Under the pieces are notes generated by a model. That model was not told where the DNA came from. It did no database searches and saw only the letters and a list, made by a program, of their open reading frames with translations. The translations under genes and the position numbers were made by a program. From Candidatus Scalindua sp. (lineage in GTDB: Bacteria > Planctomycetota > Brocadiia > Brocadiales > Scalinduaceae), in NCBI GenBank assembly GCA_031316235.1, contig JALDRA010000001.1, positions 750,001 to 782,000 of the forward strand: a DNA stretch of 32,000 nucleotides, given 5' to 3'. This document shows positions 390-31,297 of the stretch, piece after piece (position 1 is the first letter of the stretch; every line of letters starts with the position of its first letter).

Positions 390-528
390 TATAGTCATCC
401 CATAATGGTTTTCGGATAAAATCCGAGATAAAATTGAGCGAGTAAAGTCCCCGGCGCTTTTTGTCCGGGGGTACCTTCACCAGGATTTGGTTTCCGGTAA
501 AACCGAAAATCAAATCGGTTTTAGTATA
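390..528 (+). repeat. Family-1 structured intergenic repeat, copy A (long form, diverged 5' end)
   Basis: TATAGTCATCCCATAATGGTTTTCGGATAAAATCCGAG...CAAATCGGTTTTAGTATA aligns end to end with the copies at 5626 and 6189. It also aligns, reverse-complemented, with those at 13536, 14018 and 31183. Confidence 0.9.
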
Positions 529-1017
529 ACCTCCAATACCTCGTATTATACAAAATCAAAAGTAGTCATCAATGATAATCGCAACATCAGAAAAAATATT
601 TTGCCTCAATGCATTTCTTTAAACATAACAACCTCTCGATCCAATCTTACCTTTCTTCGGTCAACCTGCCGCTTGCATGGCATTCATACCAGAGTGAAAA
701 CCTGACAGGCATCACAGAATCGCCAACACAGTCCTTCCGGGCAGTGGAACATATTCCGGGGCTGCCCGTCCTGCCACACTGCCGTTGTCTGAAGCCTGCC
801 CTCTCGAAACATGTTTCAATCAGTTTCGGGATTATCACCGATATTCAGCCTGTGAAGCGTTGTGGGTAGAAAAGGGAAAGATTATGATAATGAAACGTAT
901 CAGATCTGCCATTGGCTTCAACAGAATAAAATGATTTGCAATATGTTTCCCATTATTGTAAACAAGATATATTGAACTGAACGCCAGGAATCAATCAAAT
1001 CAGAAAGGGGCGAGAAA

Positions 1018-1182
1018 ATGAAATGTCCGGAGTGCGACAGAGAATATCGATCCGATGAGGTAATGTGTGATTGCGGATATATATTTGAGGAGGAAGATCG
1101 TATTGCATCCGATCAGGAAAGAGGCGTAAATGATGAGGAAGACAATAGTGGAGATTCAAACTGCCCGCAGCATGAAAACTGA
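1018..1182 (+). CDS. Small zinc-ribbon protein (54 aa), hypothetical
   Basis: Below the ORF-track size cutoff. ATG 1018 is preceded by AAAGGGG. Translation is MKCPECDREYRSDEVMCDCGYIFEEEDRIASDQERGVNDEEDNSGDSNCPQHEN with TGA at 1180-1182. It has a CxxC...CxC pattern and an acidic tail. Confidence 0.5.
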   Translation: MKCPECDREYRSDEVMCDCGYIFEEEDRIASDQERGVNDEEDNSGDSNCPQHEN

Positions 1183-1498
1183 AAGGATCTCTCCAGGTTT
1201 TTCGGGCAGGAATCAGCGCAGGCCGGCAGCCTGTATGCCTGCCCAGACGTAACTTTCAGGGTGGAAGCTCATTCGGCCTCGATGTACCGTCTGGATAATG
1301 ACTCCTCCTCCGTCTTTGACGCAGCAGCTTAATTAGTGTTTGAACGAAAACTGCCCATCTACGGTGTTGCCGTAATAATTAAAGGTTTCTCTCAATTTAC
1401 CGACAATTTACCAACAGGTTTTTTTCCTGACCTTAAAAAACGGTTGAAATTTCAGCCCTTTCTGTTTTAATGAATTGCATGGAGGAAACGGAGGTCTT

Positions 1499-2533
1499 AT
1501 GCGAAAGATAGTAGTAACGGGAGGATTGGGTTATATCGGTTCGCACACAGTTGTCGAGTTAGTAAATAACGGCTATGTGCCCATTATTGTAGACAATCTT
1601 TCAAACTCATACTCCGATGTCCTTTCCTGGCTTGAAAAAATTGTAGACCACAGACCTTTGTTTTATCAGATTGATTGTACTGAAAAAGAGGCATTTCGTA
1701 CTGTTTTTCAGGACCACGACACCATAGAGGGTGTTATTCATTTTGCGGCCTTTAAGGCTGTTGGTGAATCGATAGAGAGACCGATCCAGTATTATCAAAA
1801 TAACCTGGGCTCGTTACTTTCATTATTAGATTTAATGAGCGAACAGGGAGTGAACAACCTCGTATTCTCTTCATCATGTACGGTATATGGTATTCCTGGA
1901 GGTACGATACAGGTAGACGAAAATACGCCCCTGCAGAAACCAAATTCTCCATACGGCCAGACCAAGATCATTTCGGAACAGATAATATCTGATGCCGCTT
2001 TTTCATCAAATATCAGGTCGGTACTTCTTCGCTATTTCAATCCTGTCGGGGCACACGAGTCGATACAGATTGGCGAGCTACCCATAGGGATACCAAATAA
2101 TCTTGTCCCCTTCATCACACAAACGGCAATCGGTATCCGGCACAAACTCTCCATTTTCGGAAATGATTATGATACACCAGACGGCACCTGTATTCGAGAT
2201 TTTATCCATGTCTCAGACCTCGCACATGCACACGTCAAGGCCCTTGAGTACCTGGATAAACAAGAGGAGGATGTTTCAATCTTTAACCTTGGTACCGGAA
2301 AAGGAAACTCGGTAATGGAATTAGTAAACACATTTGAACAGGTTACCGGGCATGATCTCAGCTATGAATTTGCCCCGCGACGGGCAGGAGATGTACCGGC
2401 AATTTACGCCAACGCAGACAAATCAAACCGGTTGCTCGATTGGACATGCAGATACTCCCTTGAAGATTCTTTATCCACTGCCTGGGCCTGGCAGAAGCAT
2501 CTGAAAGAGATCAATTTCAAGATAGAGCAGTAA
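1499..2533 (+). CDS. galE: UDP-glucose 4-epimerase
   Basis: MRKIVVTGGLGYIGSH Rossmann motif, SSSCTVYG and PYGQTK (YxxxK) catalytic motifs, full-length GalE-like. ATG 1499 sits behind GGAGG. The track start at 1475 is probably an upstream in-frame extension. Confidence 0.9.
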   Translation: MRKIVVTGGLGYIGSHTVVELVNNGYVPIIVDNLSNSYSDVLSWLEKIVDHRPLFYQIDCTEKEAFRTVFQDHDTIEGVIHFAAFKAVGESIERPIQYYQNNLGSLLSLLDLMSEQGVNNLVFSSSCTVYGIPGGTIQVDENTPLQKPNSPYGQTKIISEQIISDAAFSSNIRSVLLRYFNPVGAHESIQIGELPIGIPNNLVPFITQTAIGIRHKLSIFGNDYDTPDGTCIRDFIHVSDLAHAHVKALEYLDKQEEDVSIFNLGTGKGNSVMELVNTFEQVTGHDLSYEFAPRRAGDVPAIYANADKSNRLLDWTCRYSLEDSLSTAWAWQKHLKEINFKIEQ

Positions 2534-2593
2534 GGAATTTCCATGCCGCTTAATCTCATTAAGATCCTCGGAACCATTCAGAGGTCCCTTAGT

Positions 2594-3394
2594 TCATGAA
2601 CCTGAACTCTGATAATGATTAACCCCATATTTCCATACCACGAGTGATATCGAAAAAAGGATTATCCCCACAACCGGTGTACCCATCTCTAACGCCGGAT
2701 GCAGAAGATCATCTCCCGATCGATCCAGAAAAAGATGAGCCGGGTAGAAGTTTATGAACGCAATAGGGAACACGAAGGTCAGAAAAAACTGTACACCTGT
2801 ATTGTAGATGCTCACAGGGTATACGATAAACTCCCTGCTTGAGAATACTGCCGTATGGACCAGCGACCGGTTTCTCAAAGTCCAGAAGGCTACCGCCGAA
2901 ACCATGAGACGAATGGCCCCTGCGATCAGGACACCCCCAATCACCACTACCGGAAAGAGAGCAATCTTCTTGAGTGTCCACTCTATCCCGGAAATGTGTG
3001 TACTGAACCAGAGCGCGGCAAACCCCATAACCAGATGGGCCACCGTTGATATCTCGAACCTGGAAAAAATAACCTGCCCCAGCGGACTCAGTGGTCGTAC
3101 CAGCACTCTGTCAAATCCCCCGGAAATAATCATTTCGTCAAATTGAATCAACTGGGAGAAAATAAGGTTGGTAAATCCATGAGCCATTGCAAGAAGGGTA
3201 TACAAAAAAGCCATCTCCCCCAACGACCAGCCCTGTATTTCATGGAACTGGTTCAAGACTACAAGGAGAAGAGCAATTTGACCTATATAAAATATCAGGA
3301 TAGCAAATATGTAAAAGAGAAAACTGGTTTTATATTCCATCCTGGCTCGTAACGATGTTATAATAATGGCAAGGTAAATTCCTATAGTCTCCAT
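2594..3394 (-). CDS. ABC-2 family transporter permease (COG3694/COG4587-type membrane subunit)
   Basis: 266-aa polytopic membrane protein. It is adjacent (2-nt gap) to a second 266-aa permease and downstream of a COG4586-like ATPase, the usual trio arrangement. Confidence 0.65.
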   Translation of the reverse strand: METIGIYLAIIITSLRARMEYKTSFLFYIFAILIFYIGQIALLLVVLNQFHEIQGWSLGEMAFLYTLLAMAHGFTNLIFSQLIQFDEMIISGGFDRVLVRPLSPLGQVIFSRFEISTVAHLVMGFAALWFSTHISGIEWTLKKIALFPVVVIGGVLIAGAIRLMVSAVAFWTLRNRSLVHTAVFSSREFIVYPVSIYNTGVQFFLTFVFPIAFINFYPAHLFLDRSGDDLLHPALEMGTPVVGIILFSISLVVWKYGVNHYQSSGS

Positions 3395-3396
3395 AG

Positions 3397-4197: not shown

Positions 4198-4347
4198 GAT
4201 TTGAACTTACCAATCCTCACAGAAAAAGAGCACTTCACCCTTTCAGATATACTAAAACCGGACAGCTTTGTAATTCAGCTATTCTGCCCTTTTTGAGTTC
4301 CGGCCGGGCCGGTATTAATCATACATCAACTTTCAACACAATCATTT

Positions 4348-5361: not shown

Positions 5362-5625
5362 ATCTTTCTCTCTACACTCCTGATCAGGAGAAATGTGATA
5401 CGTTTTACCTGTTGTACGTTCATCGCATTGAATCATATCCGTTTTCTCTTGAGGGTCCAGAAAAAACCTCTGATATTTATCGTTCTCAGTTTCACGTCAG
5501 ATCTGGCCGGGCTGAAAGTCCTCGAAGCTTTCTGTCCCGGGATCAAGCTTGACTGCAGGCGCAGCCGAAGCTGCACTGAGGATTCTGCGAGTAAAGAACG
5601 GACGAAGATGGCCTGAAAAATACAG

Positions 5626-5764
5626 TATACTCATCTCATACTGGATTTCGGATAAAATCCGAGATAAATTTGAGCGAGTAAAGTCCTCGGCGCTTTTTGT
5701 CCGGGGATACCTTCACCAGGATTTGGTTTCCGGTAAAACCGAAAACCAAATCGGTTTTAGTATA
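5626..5764 (+). repeat. Family-1 structured intergenic repeat, copy B (long form, best reference copy)
   Basis: TATACTCATCTCATACTGGATTTCGGATAAAATCCGAGATAAATTTGAGCGAGTAAAGTCCTCGGCGCTTTTTGTCCGGGGATACCTTCACCAGGATTTGGTTTCCGGTAAAACCGAAAACCAAATCGGTTTTAGTATA. Confidence 0.95.
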
Positions 5765-5932
5765 CCTGCCCGGCTGATGTCTTTCGTCAGCCCGGACAAC
5801 CATTCCGGAGGAGAGAGACGGGCGAGAATACCAGGTTATTTTCTCCTGCATCCTTTCAGTATATTGATAAAAGGGCCCGTAATCTAATGAATTTTAATAC
5901 TGAAAAGAAATTCATTGCAGGAGAGATAACAG

Positions 5933-6174
5933 ATGGCAATTCGAAGCAGTGAGACAGCCACAAAGGTTCAGCCCTGGCATGAGGGCTTAACTGGTTGTCA
6001 CCATCACCCTGACGGTGATCAGATCTTTCCGATTATCGAAGGTACAGATACATCCATATGAGAGATGGAAACGAAGGATCTTTAACAGGAGAGACTGTAA
6101 CTTATCTCTTGAGATGCCCATGGCAGAAAGCTGAACAACTGAATCCACCAAAACTTCTAGAAAATAGCAGGTAA
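5933..6174 (+). pseudogene. Possible frameshifted small cupin-fold gene remnant
   Basis: AGGAG lies 9 nt before ATG 5933. Frame 1 gives MAIRSSETATKVQPWHEGLTGCHHHPDGDQIFPIIEGTDTSI, stopping at 6059-6061. The overlapping frame from 6058 gives MRDGNEGSLTGETVTYLLRCPWQKAEQLNPPKLLENSR, stopping at 6174. HHHPDGDQIFPIIEG resembles cupin motif 1 (HxH...E...G) and the second frame resembles the following beta-strands. One indel would join the two frames. Confidence 0.3.
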
Positions 6175-6188
6175 AAAGCCGATTTGTT

Positions 6189-6300
6189 TATACTCATCTC
6201 ATACTGGATTTCGGATAAAATCCGAGATATAATTGAGCGGGTATACCTTCACCAGGATTTGTTTTCCGGTAAAACCGGAAAACAAATCGGTTTTAGTATA
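6189..6300 (+). repeat. Family-1 structured intergenic repeat, copy C (short form lacking the central hairpin)
   Basis: TATACTCATCTCATACTGGATTTCGGATAAAATCCGAGATATAATTGAGCGGGTATACCTTCACCAGGATTTGTTTTCCGGTAAAACCGGAAAACAAATCGGTTTTAGTATA. Confidence 0.95.
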
Positions 6301-6367
6301 TCGTAACCCGCGACCAGGAAATGGAGTTAAAAGAAACATTCCCTCCGCTGACTCAAAGAATCCCCAT

Positions 6368-6997
6368 CTACTGTTTGAAGTTCTTTAACTCTTCCAGTGT
6401 TGCAAAACTCCGCAGTCTCTCTCCTCTTGAATCGGCAAGTGACTTCAGCTCGTTGACACCCGAAAAGAGATCATGGCTCATCTCAACAATTTGTTCGTGG
6501 CTGAGAGGACCCAGGTCCCAGAGAACCTCAAAGACACTCTTCCGCAGGTCATTACTGAGCTCTGGATAACACTCTTCCATCTCTCTCTCTCTCTCTTCCC
6601 TGGAATTATAGGCTGGTTTTCCACTCTTTATCAGTCGTCCGTCAATATAAATATTCCACAAATATTTATACCTGCGGTATGCACCGCTTCCATCTTCCGG
6701 TACACTGCTTTCTCTATACTTAAACCCTTTCTCCAACTGATCAAAGACATGCATGAGTTCGTGTACTACCCTCCCATCAAGATTATCCAGTTCATCTACG
6801 ATCTCCAACACCAATGTCTCCGCTCCAGAATCAAGATAATTCATGTCTATTGGAGCATCAGAAGGAGTATGCCTGATAGTTATACCTTTCAGTTTCTGAC
6901 TTATGCCCAGCTCCCGTGCCGCATCCTCAACCATCTTAAAGATAGCCTCTTTATTTTCAAAGCCCTCTTCAATAACCATGTTTGTACTGGTACCCAT
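6368..6997 (-). CDS. Hypothetical protein with HExxH motif (putative zinc metallopeptidase-like)
   Basis: Contains VVHELMHVF. Start chosen at MGTSTNMVIEEG (cat at 6995-6997) behind AGAGGGA. I do not recognise the family. It contains a (GA)8 tract encoding REREREM. Confidence 0.55.
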   Translation of the reverse strand: MGTSTNMVIEEGFENKEAIFKMVEDAARELGISQKLKGITIRHTPSDAPIDMNYLDSGAETLVLEIVDELDNLDGRVVHELMHVFDQLEKGFKYRESSVPEDGSGAYRRYKYLWNIYIDGRLIKSGKPAYNSREEREREMEECYPELSNDLRKSVFEVLWDLGPLSHEQIVEMSHDLFSGVNELKSLADSRGERLRSFATLEELKNFKQ

Positions 6998-7213: not shown

Positions 7214-7382
7214 ACAGTAGTATCCGGTTAGGTTTTTGCCTGCATGACTTTTGTCAAATCCGAACACTTTTATCGTGAACCCGGAGATTCGTTCATCCTG
7301 GTATTCCAGCAGACACCTTGCAGGGATGACATCTCTGGGGCTATCGTTAAAATATGTGCAAGCATCCAAACGGATAGTGATG
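7214..7382. mobile_element. Decayed copy of the family-2 MITE (intact copy at 29277-29444)
   Basis: Aligns almost without gaps over about 169 bp to 29277-29444. The left end CAGTAGTATCCGGTTAGGTTTTTGC matches CAGTAGTGTCCGGTTAG(A/G)TTTTTGC. Internal blocks GTCAaAtCCGAAC..TTTATCG..TCGTT..ATTCC..ATGACA..TGGGGC..TTAAA are shared. The internal hairpins and right terminal repeat are eroded. Confidence 0.7.
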
Positions 7383-7755: not shown

Positions 7756-7954
7756 CTTTCCGGAAATTGCTGTATAGTATAGTTAGTGCCGGAACGGTAA
7801 CCCGGTTGTTGAACTAAAACTGTCCGGTTTCAAAGGGCGTTACTCTCGTAATCCGAAGAAACTAATGTACTTGAAGATTACGGAATTATTACTGTAACGC
7901 AGTAGACGATTGGTTTTCGTTCAACCACCTATATTAGAAAGGGAACTTATTATC

Positions 7955-10400: not shown

Positions 10401-10411
10401 TATTCTACTGT

Positions 10412-10437
10412 TATACTCACCTTATAATGGTTTTCGG
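10412..10437 (+). repeat. Family-1 repeat, 5'-terminal fragment
   Basis: TATACTCACCTTATAATGGTTTTCGG matches the 5' end of copies A and B (TATACTCATCTCATACTGGATTTCGG / ..CCCATAATGGTTTTCGG). The rest of the element is missing or diverged. It lies 12 nt from the DUF3786-like start codon. Confidence 0.6.
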
Positions 10438-10529
10438 TTTTCAGAAACTCGATTTCACATAAACTCATACCCTGAAATGCCAGGAATCATTGTACCATGG
10501 GTATATGAACTTTCATTTATCCAACAACC

Positions 10530-10952: not shown

Positions 10953-13391
10953 TCAATTCATATCCTCTGGCGTTATCAGGCCACATAACACCTTATTCAG
11001 CACCTTGATTTCAAACGGTTTTGACACACCTCCACAAAAACCGTACCATTTAAAATTGGATAAAATCGGATCATTGGAGTATCCACTTGACACTATCGCC
11101 TTTACGTCAGGATCTATCTCAAGCAGTCTCTTAACCACTGTCTCTCCTCCCAGTCCGCCAGGTATGGTTAAATCCAGTATAACCGCATCAAAGGAGTCAT
11201 CCTCTTCTATAGCATTCCTATACAAACGAATTGCTTCTTCCCCTTCTCTGCATACCTCAACATCGTATCCGATGTTCCTCAGCAGCTGGCTTGTTGTATA
11301 TCTGATCTGCACCTCATCATCCATTATCAATATCCTTCCCTTGCCTGCAATTGGGCTTTCCTGCTTATCATCATTCACCGGGACCTCTTCTTCAGATATC
11401 GGTATATAGAAATGGAAGGTTGTTCCGGCCCCTATCTCCGATTCTACACTGATATATCCTCCATGGAACTTAATAATGGAAAAACAAACCGCAAGTCCCA
11501 GGCCGCTGCCCTTCTCCTTTGTCGTGAAATATGGATCAAATATCATGTTAGTATGCTCTTTTTGTATTCCGTATCCATAATCCACAACAGTTACCTTGAT
11601 GTAATCTCCGGGTTTCAGCGTGGGAACTTCCTTGCGGTCTATGGTGACATTTTCAGCAAAGACCTCTATCATACCGCCTTCCGGCATGGCCTGATCGGCA
11701 TTAATTATGAGATTGTTGATTACCTGGCTGATCTGTCCTGCATCAATATCGACAGGCCAAAGGTCATCAGGCAAAGAAATGTTGCACGTGACTTTTGAAC
11801 CTCTCAGGCTGAAACTGATTGTATCTTCTATCACTTCCCTGATAGAGGATGGCTGCTTTATCGGTAATCCACCTTTAGAAAAGGTAATGAGCTGAAATGT
11901 GAGCTTCTTTGCCATAAAAGCTATTTTTTCTACTTCTCTCAGATTTTGATATGGCGCGTCCTCTTTATGCACTCCCATCTTCGCAAGTGCTATATTCCCC
12001 AGTATACAGGCAAGATAGTTATTGAAATCGTGTGCAATACCACCGACAAGGATCCCCAGAGATTCAAGTTTTTGTATTCTGAGACGCTCTTTTTCTATTT
12101 TCTTCTGCTGGGTAAGGTCAATGGCAACTCCGATTGATCCTACGAGTTTTTTACTCGTATCATAGCGCGGGTGAATGGTATAAAAGACCGGAAACACTTC
12201 ACCACCTTTGCGAATCAGAATCGTCTCCCCGAAAAACCCCTTTTCCCCTCTTCTCAAAGCCTCCTGCATTGCAGTTATATCTTTAATGAATTCCTGAGGA
12301 TGGAGGGTGGCGAACCGTTCTCTTAATACTTCCTCTTTGGAGTATCCAAATATCTTTTCTGCACCCGGGCTGAAATTCAATATCTTCGTACCTTCTCCAC
12401 CAAGATCAGTCATGATAAGCGCAACGTTATCTACCGCATCGTACATCGCACGCAGAGACCCTTCCTGTTCATGTAAACCCTCTTCCGCCTTTTTGCGTTT
12501 GACCATTCCTGCCAACGTGTTCGCTATTGATTCCAGGAACAACTCCTCCCGTTCAGGTCTTTTCCCCAATTCGTCAAGATAGAGCAATAGTACACCAATC
12601 ACCTGTTCATCCAGCCTGATAGGTACAATGTAGTGACCATGTGAAACAATTTCTTTGTAGAGGTTCTCGTCTCGATCATCAACAGAATATTTATACATGA
12701 TATTTCTAAACTGGGCGGCCCTGCCACAGAGACAATGCCCGAACGTAACGGAAGAACACATCTTAACATGTTTCTTATCCAGACTTCGGTTTACCTTCAC
12801 TACAAGTATTTCTGGCTCATCTTCCACAAGAAATATTCCACCCTTTGGCAGTGCAGACATCCAGGGTACGGAAAGAATCACATCCAGAGATTCTTCCAGC
12901 TGTTTCGTGAGATCAATCTCCTTTAGTGATATCTTGAGGAGTTTATTCAGTACCTCCTGGTTCTGGTACGTCTCCTTCAATTCCTGATCCACTTTTTTAC
13001 GTCTGTTGACCTGGTTAATGGTAGAGAGGAGATGATCGATGTTTAATGGTTGCGTCTCGGACGATATCGCAGTTTTCACTGCTTCAATACCGTTATCCGG
13101 GGTAACAAAAGACGACATCAAGATAAATTCGGTTGAAGGCGAAATATCTCTTAATTTCCTGCTCAGTTCATCACCGGCAATGTCCGGCAACTTAACAGCT
13201 ATAAGGACGATGTCATAACTTTTGTACTTTATCAGGGTGACCGCATCCTTGCCACCATAACAACACTCAACAGTACAGTCATTACCCTCCAGGAACTCCT
13301 TCAAGCCCTCAGAGAGTACTTCATTATCATTAATAATAAGTATGTGAGTTTCTGTTTCCATCACAGGAGTCGTTTGAAACGAAGCGTTCAT
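10953..13391 (-). CDS. Hybrid sensor histidine kinase (pseudo-receiver, GAF, PAS, HisKA, HATPase_c, receiver)
   Basis: H-box GGIAHDFNNYLACILG. ATPase N/G boxes INNLIINADQAM, DYGYGI, GSGLGLAV. C-terminal receiver ILIMDDE...AVILDLTIPGG...SSGYS...KPF. GAF-like CLCGRAA region. N-terminal receiver-like fold with Ala in place of the phospho-Asp. Confidence 0.9.
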   Translation of the reverse strand: MNASFQTTPVMETETHILIINDNEVLSEGLKEFLEGNDCTVECCYGGKDAVTLIKYKSYDIVLIAVKLPDIAGDELSRKLRDISPSTEFILMSSFVTPDNGIEAVKTAISSETQPLNIDHLLSTINQVNRRKKVDQELKETYQNQEVLNKLLKISLKEIDLTKQLEESLDVILSVPWMSALPKGGIFLVEDEPEILVVKVNRSLDKKHVKMCSSVTFGHCLCGRAAQFRNIMYKYSVDDRDENLYKEIVSHGHYIVPIRLDEQVIGVLLLYLDELGKRPEREELFLESIANTLAGMVKRKKAEEGLHEQEGSLRAMYDAVDNVALIMTDLGGEGTKILNFSPGAEKIFGYSKEEVLRERFATLHPQEFIKDITAMQEALRRGEKGFFGETILIRKGGEVFPVFYTIHPRYDTSKKLVGSIGVAIDLTQQKKIEKERLRIQKLESLGILVGGIAHDFNNYLACILGNIALAKMGVHKEDAPYQNLREVEKIAFMAKKLTFQLITFSKGGLPIKQPSSIREVIEDTISFSLRGSKVTCNISLPDDLWPVDIDAGQISQVINNLIINADQAMPEGGMIEVFAENVTIDRKEVPTLKPGDYIKVTVVDYGYGIQKEHTNMIFDPYFTTKEKGSGLGLAVCFSIIKFHGGYISVESEIGAGTTFHFYIPISEEEVPVNDDKQESPIAGKGRILIMDDEVQIRYTTSQLLRNIGYDVEVCREGEEAIRLYRNAIEEDDSFDAVILDLTIPGGLGGETVVKRLLEIDPDVKAIVSSGYSNDPILSNFKWYGFCGGVSKPFEIKVLNKVLCGLITPEDMN

Positions 13392-13535
13392 GTCCCAACA
13401 TGAACGTAAAGGCCGATTATATGCATGCTGTCGACAGTTTGAAAGGGTTGATATCTTAGCTTTTCCCGCACCGCAAGCGGTATCTTTTCATTCACCACTC
13501 TGGAAAAGAGCTGGTTTCTCTACAGAGATTAAGAT

Positions 13536-13675
13536 TGTATTAAAACCGATCTGGTTTCAGATTTTTCTAAAAACCAAAGCCTGGTTGCCGGTATCCCCGG
13601 ACAGAAAACGCCGAGGACTTTTCTCGCTCCGTTTTTTCCCGGATTGTATCCGAAAACCATTACAACAGGTAAACC
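13536..13675 (-). repeat. Family-1 structured intergenic repeat, copy D (long form, subfamily b)
   Basis: The reverse complement reads ..TAATGGTTTTCGGATACAATCCGGGAAAAAACGGAGCGAGAAAAGTCCTCGGCGTTTTCTGTCCGGGGATACCGGCAACCAGGCTTTGGTTTTTAGAAAAATCTGAAACCAGATCGGTTTTAATACA. Both termini are diverged. Confidence 0.85.
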
Positions 13676-14017
13676 GAATCACACAAAAATAGATACAGAA
13701 ATTCAGGTAACAGTGAGACTCGGAGAACAAGACTTGCACTAAGATGCCCAATAATCACAATGTGCAATTTTTCCCCGCTGAAATTCGTCGTATTTTACTG
13801 TTGTTACTTCTAATTTTCCATATAATTATGGCAATACTCTTCGTGAGCCCGAGTGTCTTGTTCACTGTACAAGCAATTGATATCTTTCATTTCATGTAAG
13901 GTACTTCTTTTTTTTGTTTTGAAAAAATCCGGAATCTATGTTAAAAAGCACTAATAATTTTTACCTTCTGTCAACGTGAAAGAGGATCTGATCACGTTCT
14001 AAAAAAAAGCGCGCCGT

Positions 14018-14130
14018 TATACTAAAACCGATTTGGTTTTCGGTTTTACCGGAAACCAAATCTTGGTTGCGGTTATACTCGCTCAATTTTATCTCGGATT
14101 TTATCCGAAATCCAGTATGAGATGAGTATA
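14018..14130 (-). repeat. Family-1 structured intergenic repeat, copy E (short form)
   Basis: The reverse complement reads TATACTCATCTCATACTGGATTTCGGATAAAATCCGAGATAAAATTGAGCGAGTATAACCGCAACCAAGATTTGGTTTCCGGTAAAACCGAAAACCAAATCGGTTTTAGTATA. It ends 8 nt before ATG 14139. Confidence 0.95.
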
Positions 14131-14138
14131 CATTATTG

Positions 14139-15221
14139 ATGATGAGAAGAAACAGAGACAAAAAGGTGTATAAAAAAGGATTTAATCTTTTTGAAGCATA
14201 CCCGATGACCTTTTCAGAAAAAGTGGAATCCGTTGGGTATGATGGACCTGCAGAGGCTTTTACCATTCCATCACCTGGTTCAAAAGTCGAGCATATTGTC
14301 ATAAACCTCTGCCCTACTGAACCATGGGCACTTCCAAACTCAATAGCCATAGAGAATAATGCCCAGGAATTCTTTTCACAACTGGATACCGTACGAAAAC
14401 AACTCTTTGATGAATCATGCTGCCATGTCGTCATAAGTGCTCACGAAAGGGACCTGATGAGAGAAGTACAGGGGTTCAAGGGGTATGGTGACTGGCTGCA
14501 CACATACCTGCTGGATCCCATATACCCCCATGATGATCCAGTCCTTATATTGAATGAACTCCTGGGGTTAGACCTTGCCTTTGGTCAGGATAGCGTTGAA
14601 ATAGGTGTTCTTTTTTTAGATGCCCAGACCGTTACCGGTATATTTGAGCATCATATTCAAGGGAACAGATACAGTACCCGTCTCATACCCATATCCGGAA
14701 CCGGGTTAGTGAAAAACAAAATTCTCAAGGTTACGCCCGGTACTCCTCTTCGTGTACTGCTGGAGGGGAACATCAAACAAAATATCACCTACCGGGCATT
14801 TATTGACGGTCCGTTAAAGGGGTCTGAAGTCACCGATTTTAGTCAGAAGTTAAACTGGTCGACAAACAATATCGTTGTTCTTGAGGAAAAAGATTACAAG
14901 ACACCATTTCCTTATGTAAATTTAGACAAGCTGCTTTTTACGACAAGCCTGATGGGTGAATTGAGACACTGCGTATACTGTAATCATTGTGACGATATAT
15001 GCCCTGTCGGTTTAGAACCAGTCCTGTTCTGGCAATGTCACGAACGGGGAGAGAAGCAGAAGGCGCACCTTTATCGATTAGACAAATGTATCGAATGTGG
15101 ACTCTGCAGCTTTATCTGCCCTTCAAAGCTGGAGCTCCTTCAGGCTATCAAGGATTGTAAGTCAATTACCGCTGCAGATCAGGGCCCGGGAACAGATCAG
15201 AGTAAAGGGGCGGATGGATAA
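14139..15221 (+). CDS. RnfC/NqrA-like subunit with two 4Fe-4S motifs and no NADH/FMN loop
   Basis: CVYCNHCDDICP and CIECGLCSFICP (CxxCxxCxxxCP, twice). IVINLCPTEPW aligns to the NGAECEP segment of RnfC/NuoF-type domains. No GxGGAGFP loop and no long N-terminal RnfC_N region. It is the first gene of an nqr/rnf-like operon. Start may be ATG 14139 or 14142 (TTG 14136 in the track). Confidence 0.7.
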   Translation: MMRRNRDKKVYKKGFNLFEAYPMTFSEKVESVGYDGPAEAFTIPSPGSKVEHIVINLCPTEPWALPNSIAIENNAQEFFSQLDTVRKQLFDESCCHVVISAHERDLMREVQGFKGYGDWLHTYLLDPIYPHDDPVLILNELLGLDLAFGQDSVEIGVLFLDAQTVTGIFEHHIQGNRYSTRLIPISGTGLVKNKILKVTPGTPLRVLLEGNIKQNITYRAFIDGPLKGSEVTDFSQKLNWSTNNIVVLEEKDYKTPFPYVNLDKLLFTTSLMGELRHCVYCNHCDDICPVGLEPVLFWQCHERGEKQKAHLYRLDKCIECGLCSFICPSKLELLQAIKDCKSITAADQGPGTDQSKGADG

Positions 15222-17152: not shown

Positions 17153-18573
17153 ATGTGATTGCAAGATATATAAGACAAGCAGCAAAGTTCTTTTTACGGG
17201 ACAATTATATCATAACGTCCGCAGCAGGGCTCGGTTTTTGTTCAGCACTGGCAGTTACCAACAAGATGGAAAATTCCCTTACCATGAACGTTGGGATTGT
17301 TTTTGTTACCTGTGGAAGTTACTGTCTTGTGTATCCGTTCAGGAAATTAATCCTGGCATCGGGTACACATCACAGGATTACGCTCCTCATGATAATCATA
17401 TCCGTATTTGTTGCGATATTTAATCTGATAACACAGGCACTGATACCCAGGATTGCCTTTAGTATTCAGGCTTATATCGACCTTATTACCACGAACTGCA
17501 TCGTCCTTGCCGTAATTTCTGAAGGCCTGACCTATGAATTCTGGGATGCGCAGAAAAAGATCCTGAAGGCATGCCTGGGATACTCTATTGCCCTTGTCTT
17601 TTTAGCCCTTATGAGGGAACCTCTGGGATTTGGAACGATTCTTAATTTCCGGGTGCTCCCCGAGAGTTTTCCGGTAGTGATATTAATGATAACCCCTGTG
17701 GGTGGTTTTTTCGCCCTGGCGTTATGGAGACTCATGCTCAGGCCATTATTTATAAAAACAGGTGTTGTATTGCAGGAAAGGCCTCAGGAAGAAGCCCCTG
17801 AAACAGCTGCACAGGCAGCACCTCCTGCTTCCCTTCCCCCAAAATCAAAATTACCAGTGATGTCGAAAAAGTTCATCATCACTCTGGGAGTGGGAGCCGT
17901 TCTTATCGCAAGCCTACTCCTCAACCTTAAGGCTTTTCCATCGTTTCAGAGCCAGATGAGAGTCTTATTTCCCCTGTTTCTGAGCGCCCTGTTTTTTGAT
18001 GGTATCGTATTGAGTAAGCTTCTGGGAATCTGTCCTCTCTTAAATAAATCAAGACAGATTGATACCGCATGGAAAATGGGTCTGGCAGTCGTCATCGTCG
18101 TCACCTTATCCACAAGCCTTAACTGGATAGTTTATAACAAGGTATTGCTTAACGTAAGTGATTACGTTGCAACAATCTCTCCCGTTTCGATACGGCTTGA
18201 AAAGATATTCTACCTTACGGTCTTCATTGTTACCATTGCTACATTTGTACAGATACTTGGAGTACTGCTCAGACGTTTTGCAATGGACATCTATCAGCAA
18301 ATGGGTCAGTTTCTTGAACTCATCACCGTAAACTGCATCGTCCTTGCAAGCTCCACCTTTACCATCCCTTCAGGTCTCCCGTTCTGGTCTACGACTATTA
18401 CGGCCTTTGGTTTTGGTCTCCATTGGCTCATGGTATGTGTCTGGCTTGCGGTATTACGGCGTCAAAGGCTGTTTGTTGCATCAAATTCATGGGATGAAGA
18501 TTCTCTGGCAATACTCCTTTTGGGAATCATGGCAGCTATCTTTACCGGCATCGGGATGATAAACATCTTTTAA
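17149..18573 (+). CDS. Fused NqrD/RnfE-like + NqrE/RnfA-like membrane subunit (474 aa)
   Basis: The N-half has GLGFCSALAVT and IDLITTNCIVLA. The C-half has LLGICPLLNKS and LELITVNCIVLA. These are the two hallmark Cys-containing half-helices of each paralog. The halves are joined by a Pro/Ala-rich linker (QERPQEEAPETAAQAAPPASLPP) plus an extra hydrophobic helix FIITLGVGAVLIASLLLNL. The start overlaps the upstream stop (ATGA). Confidence 0.8.
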   Translation: MNVIARYIRQAAKFFLRDNYIITSAAGLGFCSALAVTNKMENSLTMNVGIVFVTCGSYCLVYPFRKLILASGTHHRITLLMIIISVFVAIFNLITQALIPRIAFSIQAYIDLITTNCIVLAVISEGLTYEFWDAQKKILKACLGYSIALVFLALMREPLGFGTILNFRVLPESFPVVILMITPVGGFFALALWRLMLRPLFIKTGVVLQERPQEEAPETAAQAAPPASLPPKSKLPVMSKKFIITLGVGAVLIASLLLNLKAFPSFQSQMRVLFPLFLSALFFDGIVLSKLLGICPLLNKSRQIDTAWKMGLAVVIVVTLSTSLNWIVYNKVLLNVSDYVATISPVSIRLEKIFYLTVFIVTIATFVQILGVLLRRFAMDIYQQMGQFLELITVNCIVLASSTFTIPSGLPFWSTTITAFGFGLHWLMVCVWLAVLRRQRLFVASNSWDEDSLAILLLGIMAAIFTGIGMINIF

Positions 18574-18636
18574 ACGTAATCGTATACATATGGCTTCAAT
18601 GAAAATACCGGAACAAAAAGTTACAGGGACCATACA

Positions 18637-20274
18637 ATGCTAACGCCTATTATATTTACCTTAATAGTTATTGTCGTACTTATGCTCGCATTGTCCGGCC
18701 TGAGCGAGATAATATACCAGCTGTTCGGCAAAGGGAAGAGACTACGGCTGGTTATCCACAGTGACAATGAATTCAAGAAGGAATTAGATTTTGAAGGCGG
18801 GGAGAAATTGCTCTCTATTCTTCAAACCAAGGGATTTAATATCTCCTCCGGATGCGGTGGAAATGCCACATGTGGGCAATGCAAGGTAAAGTTGCTTACA
18901 AACATGGGAACCTATGCTCCTACCGAGGCTCCTCTCTTTGATAGCATGGCAAGAAAAGAAACGAGGGAGTTTCTTGAAGAGGGCAAGGGTGACGGGTATA
19001 CGAGACTCTCCTGCCAGGTGAGGGTAGATAAAGATGTCGATATATATCTCCCGGGTTCAACGCTGCACGTAAAAAAATATACTGCACGAGTTTTAAAAAA
19101 GATACAACTCACCAGCGATAAATATGAAACACACCTACACCCATTTCAGAAATTTGACTTTATTCCAGGTCAATATATACAGATACGGCTCCCCGATGAT
19201 TATGTAGAGGAGCATTACAAGGAATTTGGTGAAAAGATACAGTGTTATTGCAAAGAAATTGACAAGAGATTTATACCCTATACCCCTGGACTTGATATAT
19301 ATCGTGCCTATTCATTGGCTACGACAAAAACAGAACCATTGAAATTGATTACGAGAATCGCGCCCATCAACCCCCGTGTTCCGATTGAAAAGGGAGGTGT
19401 ACCGTGTATTGGACCTCGATGTATAAAAGATTATATTCAAGATGAATCAATCTGGAATTTATGGGTTGGAGACAGAATACGGTTTACAGGTCCCTATGGG
19501 AATTTCCACCTTGTGAAGGAGAAACACCAGGCGGTCTTCGTCGCAGGTGGTGCCGGTTTAGCCCCCATCCTTGCACTGATGGAGCAGTGGTTCAATGAAG
19601 GACGTCATGAGAGTATATTTTTTTTCCTCGGTGAAAGGAGATTTCAGGATATACCTTTACGGTATATATCAAGGTGGTTAAAACAGGAGAAAGAATTTTC
19701 CAATTTCAAATTTATACCCGTTTTGTCAGGTGCGTTTAAGGGAGATGATCCGGCAGAGATGGACAGTCTGGATAAAGAGTGCCTTGATCAGGCTTCAGAT
19801 GAACTGAAGGGAGATATTTTAGAAGAGGGGCTGATAGATGAAAGCGGTGATAAATGGTCAGGCAAAACAGGTTTTATCGGCCCTTTGCTCACCGAATATC
19901 TCTCTCCCGGCGCTGACACGGTCTTCTATCTGTGTGGTCCCGCTCCCATGACCGTAACCGTTATCGATTCTGCGGCAAATAACCTCGGTATAGAGAAAGA
20001 TCGTGTCCAGTTCGATGATTTTACGGGCACACTTACGCCCTCTCTTGACCTGATCTACCAAAACATCGAGTTGAAAAAGAAAATTGAGGCGCTTCATCTG
20101 CTCCATGCCGATGAGTATCTAAAAAAGATAAGCCTCATTCTGATCATAAAGCTGATACTCAGAGATAAAATCGACGATAGTTACACGTTTCTCGATAAAG
20201 TCAAAAACATTGTGGATAATGACGGGGGGAGTAAAGAGGCCGCCCTGGAATCGTTATTGAAGGAATATGATTAG
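18637..20274 (+). CDS. NqrF-like reductase subunit (TM anchor, 2Fe-2S ferredoxin, FAD/NAD(H)-binding) with insertions and a C-terminal extension
   Basis: N-terminal TM helix. SSGCGGNATCGQCKV...RLSCQV (Cx5Cx2C...C as in NqrF). RAYSLAT (RxYS FAD motif). VFVAGGAGLAP and YLCGPAPM (NAD-binding). At 545 aa it is much longer than the roughly 400-aa size I recall for NqrF. Confidence 0.8.
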   Translation: MLTPIIFTLIVIVVLMLALSGLSEIIYQLFGKGKRLRLVIHSDNEFKKELDFEGGEKLLSILQTKGFNISSGCGGNATCGQCKVKLLTNMGTYAPTEAPLFDSMARKETREFLEEGKGDGYTRLSCQVRVDKDVDIYLPGSTLHVKKYTARVLKKIQLTSDKYETHLHPFQKFDFIPGQYIQIRLPDDYVEEHYKEFGEKIQCYCKEIDKRFIPYTPGLDIYRAYSLATTKTEPLKLITRIAPINPRVPIEKGGVPCIGPRCIKDYIQDESIWNLWVGDRIRFTGPYGNFHLVKEKHQAVFVAGGAGLAPILALMEQWFNEGRHESIFFFLGERRFQDIPLRYISRWLKQEKEFSNFKFIPVLSGAFKGDDPAEMDSLDKECLDQASDELKGDILEEGLIDESGDKWSGKTGFIGPLLTEYLSPGADTVFYLCGPAPMTVTVIDSAANNLGIEKDRVQFDDFTGTLTPSLDLIYQNIELKKKIEALHLLHADEYLKKISLILIIKLILRDKIDDSYTFLDKVKNIVDNDGGSKEAALESLLKEYD

Positions 20275-24289: not shown

Positions 24290-24470
24290 TATCAATACCT
24301 GGAGTTTTAATTATGTAAAGTAAAATTTCTATTTAGTAGTTGAACGGAATCTACCCGTCTCATGCGTTGCAGTAATAATTCCTTACTCTCCGCTTACTTT
24401 CCGGTTATTAAATCAGCACGCATTTTGTCACTGAGCAGTTTTTTTCCAGTCACGGGTTTCCGTTCACCTA

Positions 24471-27836: not shown

Positions 27837-27839
27837 ATA

Positions 27840-28040
27840 TCACCCGCCACCAACGAAGGTGACCACTTCTAAATTGTCACTTTCCTGTAATTTTATCTCA
27901 TTAAATTGTGTACGTGGAATTATTTTACGATTTTTTTCAACAGCAACGAATCTCATGTCTATATCCAGCTCTTCCAGCAGCTTGGCAATAGATGTGCCCT
28001 CCGAACACTCCAGTTTTTCATCGTTCACGGTAATTTGCAT
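27840..28040 (-). CDS. thiS: Sulfur-carrier protein ThiS
   Basis: 66 aa, MQITVNDEK..., ends in VGGG (C-terminal Gly-Gly), immediately upstream of thiG. Confidence 0.9.
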   Translation of the reverse strand: MQITVNDEKLECSEGTSIAKLLEELDIDMRFVAVEKNRKIIPRTQFNEIKLQESDNLEVVTFVGGG

Positions 28041-28175
28041 TTTACTCTCAATCCATGTGCTGCCTGTTTCACGATCGTATCCACCATATAATTTTCCATT
28101 ATTCTAATTAGCTTTATAACAATTTCAAGGAAAAAGAGTTTTTGACATGGTATCGGTATTCAGATATACTTTCAT

Positions 28176-28260
28176 GCTGAGCTAAAAGTGCCCGCCTACA
28201 GCGCTGCTGTAAGGATTTCGTTATCCTTACGCGACGTGTATCCGGGCACGTTAGCTCAGC
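28176..28260. other. 85-nt extended hairpin in the thiS / udg divergent intergenic region
   Basis: GCTGAGCTAAAAGTGCCCG (28176-28194) pairs with CGGGCACGTTAGCTCAGC (28243-28260) with one unpaired A. The nested hairpin GTAAGGAT-TTCGTT-ATCCTTAC lies at 28209-28230. Confidence 0.6.
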
Positions 28261-28385
28261 GTGAGAGTTTCCGTCAGGCAATTAAATTATTCAGATTAAT
28301 ACCGGTGAATGACAATTGTTTTTTCCCGTAATTCATAGTTCACCACTTAGTAGGTAAGATAGTAAAAGGATCTTGTCAGTCTTCC

Positions 28386-29192
28386 ATGTCCAGGAACATA
28401 ACTCCCTCATTTCAATCTCCAAATAGAGAAGAAACTAAGACTGAAATCCTCTCCCTGCTGAATATCCTGTATCATAAAGTTGATTTAGAGAGAACATTTG
28501 GCGTGAGTGATCTTCAGGTATCTCCCTCCGGTGTACATCACCCTGCACTTGAAAAAAATACCGTCACAAAACAGATCAAACAGAAAATAATCAGCAATGA
28601 AACCAGGATTCCTGAAGAGCCGGAATATGATCAAGCAGATAACGTTTCAACACTTAAGAGCCTGGAAGAACAGGCAAAACAGTGCACAGACTGTGAACTG
28701 TCAAAGAGCAGAACAAACGTTGTTTTTGGAACAGGCTCGCCGAACTCTGACCTTATGTTTGTTGGCGAGGCACCGGGTTATTATGAAGATATCAAAGGAG
28801 AACCATTCGTTGGAAAAGCCGGACAGCTCTTGACAAAAATTATTGAAGCCATCGACTTGAAAAGAGGTGAGGTATACATTGCCAACGTATTAAAATGCCG
28901 TCCACCAGGGAACAGAAACCCCTCTCCCAATGAAATTATTTCCTGTACACCCTATTTATTTCAGCAAATTGATCTCATAAACCCGAAGATAATTTGCGCT
29001 CTCGGAACATTTGCAGCACAGGCATTGCTTAAGTCAACAGCCACGATTGGTACATTGCGTGGAAAATTTCATGAATTCCGGTCAACAAAACTCATCGCTA
29101 CGTACCATCCTGCTTACCTGTTACGAAATCCCAGTGAAAAGAGAAAAACCTGGGAAGACATGAAAAAGATCCGTGATTTTTTAAACTCGTAA
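28386..29192 (+). CDS. Family-4 uracil-DNA glycosylase with N-terminal extension
   Basis: CTDCELSKSRTNVVFGTGSPNSDLMFVGEAPGYYEDIKGEPFVGKAGQLL, NVLKCRPPGNRNP, ATYHPAYLLRNP. These are the family-4 (4Fe-4S) UDG motifs. About 95 non-conserved residues precede them. Confidence 0.9.
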   Translation: MSRNITPSFQSPNREETKTEILSLLNILYHKVDLERTFGVSDLQVSPSGVHHPALEKNTVTKQIKQKIISNETRIPEEPEYDQADNVSTLKSLEEQAKQCTDCELSKSRTNVVFGTGSPNSDLMFVGEAPGYYEDIKGEPFVGKAGQLLTKIIEAIDLKRGEVYIANVLKCRPPGNRNPSPNEIISCTPYLFQQIDLINPKIICALGTFAAQALLKSTATIGTLRGKFHEFRSTKLIATYHPAYLLRNPSEKRKTWEDMKKIRDFLNS

Positions 29193-29276
29193 GATATCAA
29201 ATCTTAGGCGCTCAGAGCGTCAAAGTTGCCAATATGTTGTCGTTATTTTATAAGTTGTTGAAGTTTTCATTTTTAG

Positions 29277-29444
29277 TCAGTAGTGTCCGGTTAGATTTTT
29301 GCGTAGGCGGCTTTCGTCATACCCGAACGCCTTTATCGGGTATCCAGTGACTCGTTTCATCATAGATTCCCGCTAAAAACATGCGGGAATGACAGTTTTG
29401 GGGCAATAAATTAAATACGCAAAAACCTAACCGGACACTACTGA
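29277..29444. mobile_element. Family-2 MITE: 168 bp, 30-bp terminal inverted repeats, flanked by the 7-bp direct repeat TTTTTAG
   Basis: The left end is TCAGTAGTGTCCGGTTAGATTTTTGCGTA. The reverse complement of the right end is TCAGTAGTGTCCGGTTAGGTTTTTGCGTA (one mismatch). TTTTTAG occurs at 29270-29276 and 29445-29451. Internal hairpins are ATACCCGA/TCGGGTAT (29319-29343) and ATTCCCGC/GCGGGAAT (29366-29390). Confidence 0.85.
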
Positions 29445-29471
29445 TTTTTAGTTAAAATTCTAAATAAAAAT

Positions 29472-29622
29472 ATCGAAATACGAAACAAATCCAAAATTCA
29501 AATTTCTACCCGCTCAAAATACAAACTATTTTTTACCCTATATTCTTTCGTTTTTGAAATTTGGAATTTGGATTTAAAATTGTTTCGAATTTCGGGTTTC
29601 GTGCTTCGGATTTATTCTATCA
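29472..29622. repeat. AT-rich imperfect palindrome built from CGAAA(T/C)-type short motifs (family 3)
   Basis: The left arm ATCGAAATACGAAACAAATCCAAAATTCAAATTTC (29472-29506) corresponds to the reverse complement of the right arm, ..CGAAATTCGAAACAATTTTAAATCCAAATTCCAAATTTC (29565-29622). The spacer is about 58 bp. Confidence 0.65.
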
Positions 29623-29729
29623 AACTATAATAAAAAAATATGGGTCTTTTCTTTATAGCAATAAGGGAAGATTTGAAAACTTCCGGCCTGGTCAGGTCTG
29701 GAATTAAAATTTCAGAAACCGTATTGCCC

Positions 29730-31028
29730 TTATAAATTCTTTATGCACCCTTGAAGCTCTCGTATTATTTCACTCACGTAATTTGAAATGTTCTTGAAGC
29801 CCTTGCCCTCCCCCATTAAACAGATACACCTCTCCGATATCTCTAAGGCCCTCGACAGGTGCTTCTTTTGACGATCAGTAAAAATTATCGCTCTTTCGGG
29901 CATGTATCGTATGTACTCCGAAAACTCCGCAGTCAACAACTCTTCAAGTACTGAGAATCCCCGGGTTTCAAGGGCACTTATCCTGCATATGGGAAGTGAA
30001 TGGTCTATCCCGAGCACTGACGTGTCTAATTTCTGAGGCAGGTCCGTCTTATTTACAACAACAATAACAGGAGTTTTACGAGGGTTTCTGCTTCCCTTAC
30101 ACCCCCTTGATATTTCCATGACAAATTCAAACAATTCCCTATCTTTGTCCTCACCGGGAATTGAATTATCAATCACATACACTATCTTGTCTGCCCTCCT
30201 TAATTGCTTCCTGGTAGCTGAAACACCAAGTTTTTCTACAGCATCCATTGTCTCTCTCATACCGGCAGTATCAACAATCGTAAAGGGGATGCCATAAACT
30301 GAGACCAGAACATCAATCGCATCACGTGTCGTACCCGGTTCTTCGTGGACAATAGATCTCTCCTCCCTTAAAAGAGCATTAATGAGTGTCGATTTCCCCA
30401 CATTTGGTCTTCCTGCAATTACCAGCCTTTGCGGTGAAGTAATTGCGCATCCAAAGGTAGCGGTTCCAATTATTTCACTCAAGCTTTTATGGATATGAGG
30501 TAACTGTTGTTTGATATTTTCATATTCAGCATTTATGATAAGATCCTTAATAAAAGAAGATAACGCACCATTATATTGGTCAATGAGGACTTTGGCACTT
30601 AACTTTGTCTTCGCCTGAGGTATTTCTCTGTACGCCTCTTTCTGAATAAGATCAATCTTCCCATTCATATAAGATCGTTCCGTAAGCTCTTCCCAATGTG
30701 CTTCCCGGGCCCCTGCAGAGAGTATACATTCAAGTGTCTTTTTAACCGCCTGAATACCACCATGGCAGTTAACCTCAACTAAATCCTCACCCGTATAGCT
30801 ATCCTCTTTTCGAAGTATATTAACGATCACTTCATCAACGGGTCTTTCATCCATGTAAATCTTTCCATAATGAAGACTCTTTGATTGGGCGGTTCTCAGG
30901 TCTCCATTCCTCTTTCCTCTAAAAACGGCATTTACTATCTCCCGAGAACGGGGCCCTGATACCTGAACCACACCTATTCCCCCCTCCCCTATAGGTGTAA
31001 CAATAGATGCGATTGTTTCTCCATTCAT
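29730..31028 (-). CDS. mnmE: tRNA modification GTPase MnmE (TrmE)
   Basis: N-terminus ETIASIVTPIGEGGIGVVQVSGP. G-domain motifs GRPNVGKSTLINALL, GTTRD, DTAGMR, NKTDL. The C-terminus reads GCIKNL rather than the canonical terminal CIGK. Confidence 0.88.
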   Translation of the reverse strand: MNGETIASIVTPIGEGGIGVVQVSGPRSREIVNAVFRGKRNGDLRTAQSKSLHYGKIYMDERPVDEVIVNILRKEDSYTGEDLVEVNCHGGIQAVKKTLECILSAGAREAHWEELTERSYMNGKIDLIQKEAYREIPQAKTKLSAKVLIDQYNGALSSFIKDLIINAEYENIKQQLPHIHKSLSEIIGTATFGCAITSPQRLVIAGRPNVGKSTLINALLREERSIVHEEPGTTRDAIDVLVSVYGIPFTIVDTAGMRETMDAVEKLGVSATRKQLRRADKIVYVIDNSIPGEDKDRELFEFVMEISRGCKGSRNPRKTPVIVVVNKTDLPQKLDTSVLGIDHSLPICRISALETRGFSVLEELLTAEFSEYIRYMPERAIIFTDRQKKHLSRALEISERCICLMGEGKGFKNISNYVSEIIRELQGCIKNL

Positions 31029-31182
31029 TTATATACTACCGATCCGTAAAATATTTTTCTCAGCCCACCGCGCTCGACCGCATGGCAATGTTGATTCCTG
31101 AGGGCTCAGCCAAACCCTTAATCAGACAGGGAGTTTTAAAATAATCTGTTGGTAAAAAGTGATTTAAAACGTGAATTCCTCA

Positions 31183-31297
31183 TATACTAAAACCGATTTG
31201 GTTTTAGATTTTTCTAAAAACCAAAGCCTGATTAATGGCACGTTCGCTCCGTTTTTCCCCGGATTTTACCCGAATACCATTAGTTAAGATGAGTATA
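31183..31297 (-). repeat. Family-1 structured intergenic repeat, copy F (short form, subfamily b)
   Basis: The reverse complement reads TATACTCATCTTAACTAATGGTATTCGGGTAAAATCCGGGGAAAAACGGAGCGAACGTGCCATTAATCAGGCTTTGGTTTTTAGAAAAATCTAAAACCAAATCGGTTTTAGTATA. Confidence 0.9.

Follow-up and report, generated by a model that had tools for sequence, protein, structure and literature searches.

A 32,000-nt stretch of a Candidatus Scalindua sp. genome (contig JALDRA010000001.1, positions 750,001 to 782,000; hereafter the window) carries six full copies of a short intergenic repeat that encodes nothing. The family to which they belong has the defining properties of a MITE (miniature inverted-repeat transposable element) that duplicates a TA target. 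The best explanation for its spread is that the copies are non-autonomous and were moved in trans, probably by a transposase of the IS630 type. The defining MITE features that we tested were all found in the family, except a co-resident autonomous partner, of which there was none in 0.92 Mb of loci from related genomes. The family thus adds one more case to a familiar class of selfish DNA; it is neither a novel RNA nor a novel regulatory system or mechanism.

An earlier note on this DNA, made from the letters alone, had placed six full copies (A to F) at the positions and on the strands listed in Table 1. Every one of them was recovered there by repeat finding, by aligning the six sequences with one another and by an nhmmer profile (E 2e-45 to 2e-26). 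In the alignment, A, B and D are 139–140 nt long, and C, E and F 112–115 nt. The long form differs from the short one by one 27-nt GC-rich hairpin, AAGTCCTCGGCGCTTTTTGTCCGGGGA, between GAGTA and TACC. The motif at the 3’ end, ATCGGTTTTARTAYA, occurred seven times in the window, versus 0.21 times expected by chance. The hairpin-1 motif, TTCGGRTAMAATCCG, was also found seven times (0.24 expected), six times in copies A–F and once at 22924, as a chance-type match with two mismatches. The 5’ terminus of copy D is degenerate or lost (GGTTTACCTGTTG instead of TATACTCATCTCA), and this copy is therefore probably immobile. None of the open reading frames (ORFs) overlapping copies (5549–5887, 13390–13692 and 13961–14434) had a Pfam match. 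In the earlier note, no copy overlapped a credible coding sequence. With 112–140 nt of non-coding DNA, the window copies fall within the size of a MITE (<300 bp).

Dispersal and TA target duplication

A database with one genome per species was scanned with a 22-mer from the 3’ end of the MITE. This gave at least 119 loci, referred to here by L numbers. All named ones were Candidatus Scalindua, Scalinduaceae or Planctomycetota metagenome-assembled genomes (MAGs), and a few short contigs were binned elsewhere. Together, the 0.92 Mb of loci and the window had at least ~190 distinct nhmmer profile hits and at least 113 distinct full-length copies (the window’s six counted), 104 of the 113 outside crude ORFs. 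Full copies per genome were at least 52 in RBC_AMX3, at least 29 in SCAELEC01 and at least 20 in CBDCUS01. These counts are lower bounds from a biased sample of loci. The family, predicted to be very large from the density in the window, is large in related genomes.

The window is syntenic with a contig of Scalindua sp. RBC_AMX3, at ~72–77% nucleotide identity, which places it in a related genome of the Scalinduaceae. In L030, from the same genome, a MITE copy lies between two genes of an Rnf/Nqr-type operon, and the syntenic spacer of the window is 63 nt long, without a copy. The two sequences are too diverged (~75% identity) to align an empty site base by base. Dispersed copies (at least 119 loci) and lineage-specific insertion sites (L030 versus the window), both of which characterize a MITE, are thus present.

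The boundaries of the element are sharp. The first base is T in 156 of 166 copies, which start T-ATACTC, and the last base is A in 164 of 178 copies, which end TTAGTAT-A. Past these boundaries the flanks are unrelated in sequence. They show a symmetric preference, for A/T ahead of the 5’ TA and for T/A behind the 3’ TA (WTAW context). The element extends from TACT... to ...AGTA, with a TA on either side. Together, its ends make up a terminal inverted repeat (TIR) of 26 bp, as expected for a MITE. The repeat is imperfect, with 18 of 26 positions identical between TATACTCATCTCATAATGGTTTTCGG and the reverse-complemented 3’ end, TATACTAAAACCGATTTGGTTTTCGG. The outer 6 bp, TATACT...AGTATA, are perfect, and both ends are >90% conserved in 79 copies.

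We joined both flanks of each copy and sought them in the other loci, which yielded uninterrupted paralogous repeats for several copies. Five independent filled/empty pairs were obtained (Table 1), each with a single TA in the empty site and TA-element-TA in the filled site. A sister-family element in L106 was itself inserted into a MITE copy at CCGGTA-TA-AAATTG, also at TA. These results show that the target of the MITE is a single TA, with a preference for a WTAW context, and that this TA is duplicated on insertion, a possibility raised previously.

Candidate transposases

Insertion at TA with duplication of the TA is a hallmark of IS630/Tc1-mariner elements (PMC2170065), and both the TA insertion and the 2-bp duplication were found in the MITE. 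For example, ISY100, of the IS630 family, is cut and pasted almost exclusively into TA, which is duplicated, and its transposase binds the TIRs by N-terminal helix-turn-helix domains (PMC2170065). These autonomous insertion sequences (ISs) are 1–1.4 kb long and carry a transposase gene, whereas the window elements encode nothing. A DDE transposase of the IS630/Tc1-mariner type, encoded elsewhere, would bind the TIRs of the MITE, cut it out and paste it. The partner IS would be an IS630-family gene between TIRs of the form TATAC(T/C)CA...TGGTTTTCGG, plus TA. We infer this mode of mobilization from sequence comparison, and consider it well supported, although not demonstrated.

Metagenomes were scanned with a pattern made of the degenerate 26-bp TIR and, behind it, bases that rule out continuations of the MITE. 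From the 14 hits, seven were MITE variants and three (L126, L131 and L133) belonged to one longer element, at different insertion sites. This element begins TATACTCAAACC[G/A]AAATGGTTTTCGG. Its terminus is identical to the 5’ TIR of the MITE at 21–22 of 26 positions and to the 3’ TIR at 22–23 of 26, and is thus closer to either MITE end than the MITE ends are to each other. Past the terminus, two opposite-strand ORFs in L126 match the IS630 transposase profile NF033545, at positions 2–135 and 148–258 (E 2.7e-14 and 1.6e-16), and homologues of this transposase carry DDE_3 and HTH_33 domains. The element sharing the MITE TIR encodes an IS630-type transposase, and links the TIR to the IS630 family through one recovered end, in what is probably a different host. 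The other hits (L121, L123, L125 and L129) lay in or beside ordinary genes without a transposase, and are probably chance or unrelated matches.

The element in L126 (2016–3072, metagenome Ga0272440) has its transposase divided between two ORFs, with their overlap at an A_AAA_AAG heptamer, an arrangement that suggests programmed -1 frameshifting. About 40 C-terminal profile positions were unmatched, so this IS copy may be defective. The transposase homologues P0001, P0002, P0008, P0065 and P0111 were rejected as partners of the MITE, having different TIRs and none being located on a Scalindua contig.

Several observations weigh against mobilization by an IS630-type transposase. Some IS5-family groups also produce TA duplications. 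The nearest homologues of the L126 transposase (~50% identity) have other TIRs, (A)TACCAAYYYGC... The L126, L131 and L133 contigs have a GC content of 33–36% and no MITE copy, and therefore the matching IS630 element probably belongs to another organism. It is known from one end only, its left end not having been recovered. Its similarity to the MITE ends with the 26-bp TIR, the subterminal sequences being unrelated, so that beyond the TIR we saw no sign of derivation of the MITE from this element by internal deletion. No autonomous element with MITE TIRs was found among the Scalindua sequences examined (the window and 0.92 Mb of loci), there was no multi-copy transposase ORF in the loci, and no transposase in the window. 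Facing TIR pairs 0.25–4 kb apart were searched in the at least 119 Scalindua loci as potential parent elements. The candidates, 1–2.5 kb apart, enclosed ordinary genes (L018 and L100) or, in a sister MITE (L106), what looks like a group II intron reverse transcriptase. Finally, we saw no presence/absence polymorphism for the window’s own six copies. Exact-protein look-ups, by which their empty sites were sought, found only short-read contigs of the same strain, ending inside copies.

A transposase outside the IS630 family could also have moved the MITE, for example one of the IS5/IS427 group, some IS5 subgroups making 2-bp TA duplications, or one of unknown type, as in the case of Correia elements. 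Such an origin would fit the lack of an IS630 transposase among the Scalindua sequences examined, and the different, lower-GC background of the matching IS630 element. We consider it unlikely. The 26-bp TIR matches an IS630-family terminus at 21–23 of 26 positions, above the match of the MITE ends to each other, and strict TA targeting with TA duplication points to IS630/Tc1-mariner (PMC2170065).

Palindromic DNA and the question of an RNA role

The copies are rich in hairpins and fold far better than shuffled sequence, with z-scores from -5.2 to -7.2. About 90% of the cells in the proposed helices are paired. The + strand has G-U pairs in hairpin 1 and in the GC hairpin (248 G-U versus 91 A-C cells), and hairpin 3 of copy C, followed by GGTTTTAG, was flagged as terminator-like. 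Effects on transcripts are known for other bacterial MITEs (PMC10969869). The copies could thus be structured small RNA genes or cis-regulatory motifs (attenuators, terminators or RNase targets), with functional hairpins and kept by selection.

We regard this as very unlikely, for the following reasons. Tested on 79 copies with a manual structure, helix pairing was 90.3%, versus 89.7% in column-shuffled controls. Pairs changed on both sides numbered 9, versus 5.9 ± 1.6 in the shuffled alignments, of which 25 in 500 had at least as many. RNAalifold on the same number of copies gave no consensus structure. The reverse strand folds equally well (z -5.2 versus -5.3, and -7.15 versus -7.04), and at the apex of hairpin 3 the G-U/A-C asymmetry favours the opposite strand from that favoured by hairpin 1 and the GC hairpin. 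Neither covariation beyond ancestry nor a strand-specific fold, as expected from a structured RNA, was therefore detected, and the covariation check that had been proposed for the family speaks against RNA. Orientation is random, with 44 co-oriented versus 39 anti-oriented copies at gene 3’ ends and 48 versus 43 at 5’ ends, and tandem, convergent and divergent spacers occur in proportions that match the background. The TA duplication shows that the copies have spread by transposition. A terminator or promoter role was rejected as well: only copy C passed the terminator scan, there was no promoter-like site inside the copies scanned, and orientation was unbiased.

With gathering scores as the cut-off, the Rfam scan of the whole window gave no hits, in agreement with the earlier impression that the repeat is no named RNA. 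Matches at E<10 over 5400–6400 were noise. The best had E 2.3 and 18 bits, where the gathering score is 139.

The inverted termini had been proposed to be either MITE TIRs or a helix closing the two ends of an RNA. In the folds predicted for copies B and C, whose architecture A shares, the partner of the 5’ end is not the 3’ end but the GAGTA inside the first half. On these models the termini are TIRs and not a closing helix. The lack of covariation, the strand symmetry and the unbiased orientation likewise give no support to the closing helix of a structured RNA. The hairpins would be a by-product of palindromic DNA, and not a selected RNA fold. Nothing that we found appears to require an RNA function, and incidental effects on transcripts are conceivable, like those known for Correia and ERIC elements (PMC10969869).

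As far as can be read from its sequence, the 112-nt core seems to be built from two half-units, each palindromic, which join between GAGTA and TACC. The 5’ half-unit, TATACTCATCTCA...TGAGCGAGTATA, is closed by TACTC/GAGTA and contains hairpin 1 (TTCGGAT AAA ATCCGA). The 3’ half-unit is one long hairpin, GATTTGGTTTCCGG TAAA ACCGAAAACCAAATC. The junction of the half-units is the exact site of the 27-nt GC hairpin in the 139-nt form. In other Scalindua genomes there are forms of 160–200 nt. Their extra GC-rich palindromes occupy the hairpin-1 and hairpin-3 loops, directly 5’ of TAAAA. The 139-nt and 160–200-nt forms would have arisen by addition of GC-rich palindrome cassettes at the junction and in the hairpin loops, and cassette-bearing sublineages would have been amplified after the cassette was gained.

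Three palindromes were recognized inside many MITE copies: P1 (CCTGCCTGTGCG..CGCACGCAGACAGG), P2 (CCCGCCCGGCCTGTCAGCCGTTCGGACGGG) and a third one (CCCGCCTGAACGACATGTCG.GCAGG). They occur in L017, L037, L040, L046, L067, L009:250–450, L018:400–560, L023, L086 and others, and in no window copy. Most lie directly 5’ of TAAAA in hairpin loops, and some form arrays of 2–3 units in alternating orientation. The palindromes were also found outside MITEs, in a REP/BIME-like manner.

The hairpin architecture, together with these REP-like GC palindromes, present in many copies and alone, and partly in arrays of alternating orientation, would also suit a palindrome of the REP/BIME type, which a RAYT (IS200/IS605-like Y1) transposase would spread by way of single-stranded DNA hairpins. 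Applied to the whole element, this reading is extremely improbable. The MITE has 26-bp TIRs and a 2-bp TA duplication, which do not result from Y1 transposition (PMC2817692), and it is AT-rich and 112–140 nt long, unlike the 20–40-nt GC palindromes of REP/BIME. The TA duplications contradict such an origin for the whole element, and it could apply to the nested cassettes P1 and P2 only.

A more speculative idea, which we hold to be doubtful, is that the MITE serves as a landing pad for a second, distinct mobile mini-element, represented by the GC palindromes (P1, P2 and the 27-nt hairpin) that recur at fixed positions. If so, the palindromes would have entered hairpin loops independently and site-specifically, for instance through a RAYT or an IS200/IS605-like single-strand transposase. 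Planctomycetota would then have non-coding mobile DNA nested in two tiers, and the resulting hairpin variants might be under selection at the RNA level.

Known counterparts, impact and neighbouring repeats

By description rather than by sequence, the closest model for the MITE is RUP of Streptococcus pneumoniae. RUP is a non-coding intergenic MITE of ~107 bp, with ~108 copies, IS630-Spn1-like TIRs and insertion at TA; it is proposed to be mobilized by IS630-Spn1 and often inserts into other repeats or IS elements (PMC2229807, PMC10969869). The Scalindua MITE is similar in its length of 112–139 bp, TA duplication, IS630-like TIR and recurrent insertion into a second repeat family. It differs from RUP in its host, an anammox bacterium of the Planctomycetota, in its 26-bp TIRs (9 contiguous bp in RUP), in the matching IS not being found in the same genome, and in its modularity, with added palindrome cassettes. 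The TA/TIR link makes it an additional case, beside RUP, of a bacterial MITE tied to the IS630 family.

The Correia/NEMIS elements of Neisseria are MITEs of 100–200 bp, with TIRs of ~24–26 bp, TA termini and target duplication (PMC2229807, PMC10969869). As in the Scalindua MITE, internal segments create size variants and the elements fold into long hairpins (PMC2229807, PMC10969869). Their transposase is not known. Correia elements carry promoters and an IHF site, are mostly located upstream of genes and are cleaved by RNase III, whereas the copies of the Scalindua MITE scanned had no promoter-like sites and showed no bias in orientation or position. ERIC/IRU and Stowaway-type MITEs are likewise small, palindromic, TA-flanked intergenic repeats in either orientation (PMC2229807). 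ERIC differs by its TIRs of only 7 bp, and some of its copies modulate mRNA decay. Stowaway elements are eukaryotic and are likened to the Scalindua MITE by description only.

An abundant non-coding MITE explains a conspicuous feature of the genomes of Scalindua, a marine anammox bacterium, with six copies in the 32 kb studied here. At its high copy number, it takes up a large share of the intergenic regions. Short-read contigs L120 and L138–L141 (Logan SRR28338161 and SRR28338162), with proteins identical to those of the window, end inside copies A, B, D and F, and read straight through the low-copy sister element at 10412–10506. The MITE therefore directly causes assembly fragmentation in this organism, and is a practical cause of fragmented anammox MAGs. 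The literature searched does not describe a MITE from Scalindua or from any other anammox bacterium, and the family should therefore be useful as an annotation and strain-typing marker.

The MITE can also reshape gene ends. In L030 (3940–4110, compared with window 18520–18640), it lies at the extreme 3’ end of a gene for an Rnf/Nqr-type membrane subunit and provides the final codon and the stop (...IRIY*; TAC TAA from TATACTAAAACC). The window orthologue, without the MITE, ends in ...INIF*.

Table 1 Copies and parts of the MITE, related features of the window, and filled/empty site pairs from other loci.
Feature	Position or locus	Strand	Details
MITE copy A	390..528	+	139-nt form, with GC hairpin cassette; nhmmer 151 bits
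MITE copy B	5626..5764	+	139-nt form; reference copy
Copy B, 5’ TIR	5626–5651		
Copy B, domain-1 closing helix	5628–5638/5671–5680		predicted fold
Copy B, hairpin 1	5645–5665		
Copy B, GC hairpin cassette	5683–5708		
Copy B, hairpin 3	5715–5755		
Copy B, 3’ TIR	5739–5764		
MITE copy C	6189..6300	+	112-nt core form; hairpin 3 a perfect 15 bp
MITE copy D	13536..13675	-	140-nt form; hairpin-3 variant TTTTTAGAAAAATCT
MITE copy E	14018..14130	-	113-nt core form; end 5 nt ahead of ORF start at 14136
MITE copy F	31183..31297	-	115-nt core form; most diverged of the six; upstream of mnmE
3’-terminus remnant	4248..4262	-	TATACTAAAACCGGA on + strand
GC hairpin cassette, isolated copy	5514..5543	+	AAAGTCCTCGAAGCTTTCTGTCCCGGGAT; then GCGAGTAAAG piece at ~5589–5598
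Sister-family MITE	10412..10506	+	complete, 95 nt; TATACTCACCTTATAATGGTTTTCGG...CCATGGGTATA
TA duplication	L009/L016		empty CCTTG-TA-CCTGG, filled CCTTG-TA-[element]-TA-CCTGG
TA duplication	L101		same site of same host repeat as L009/L016, different element variant
TA duplication	L031 vs L033/L058		CTCTGA-TA-TCTCG
TA duplication	L060 vs L037		
TA duplication	L076 vs L104/L097		GTTAA-TA-AATTAC

The genes of the window encode Rnf/Nqr-type subunits, DUF3786, NuoF-like and further anaerobe-type proteins. Three fragments of the MITE had been reported between them in the earlier note. The one at 4248–4260 is a true remnant of the 3’ end and extends to 4262. The one at 5514–5543 is related to the family, as reported, and represents an isolated copy of the GC hairpin module. 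This hairpin and its right flank (TCAAG...GCAGGCGCAGCC), in window 5500–5625 just upstream of copy B, were also found at L058:7727, suggesting that the same GC cassette is part of yet another small repeat family. The third, at 10412–10437, was misassigned. It is the 5’ end of the complete sister-family element, which has its own ends, TATAC...GGGTATA, and belongs to the same family as a 2.08-kb insert in L106.

This insert is part of a three-level nesting (L106:390–2560), in which a MITE copy is split at TA by the 2.08-kb element with sister-family TIRs (TATACCCATCACAAATTGGTTTTCGG). The element carries a 415-aa ORF (L106:580–1827, - strand), judged by eye to be similar to group II intron reverse transcriptases.

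A second abundant repeat family, of ~150 nt, has its own TIRs, AGTGTTTGAACGAAAACT...AGTTTTGGTTCAAACACT. It has one copy in the window at 7777–7928 (- strand) and partial copies at 1336–1380 and 24336–24400, and was found beyond the window in L001:314–481, L045, L026, L052 and many more loci. Its centre, CCTTG-TA-CCTGG, is a recurrent insertion site of the MITE, with at least two independent insertions. The window copy at 7777–7928 is diverged and lacks a TA at the MITE insertion position.

Another MITE-like unit, at 29264–29457, has a 110-nt core between inverted arms of 42 nt (83% complementary). At 7215–7239 one of the arms recurs as a 25-nt copy, with 96% complementarity to 29419–29443.

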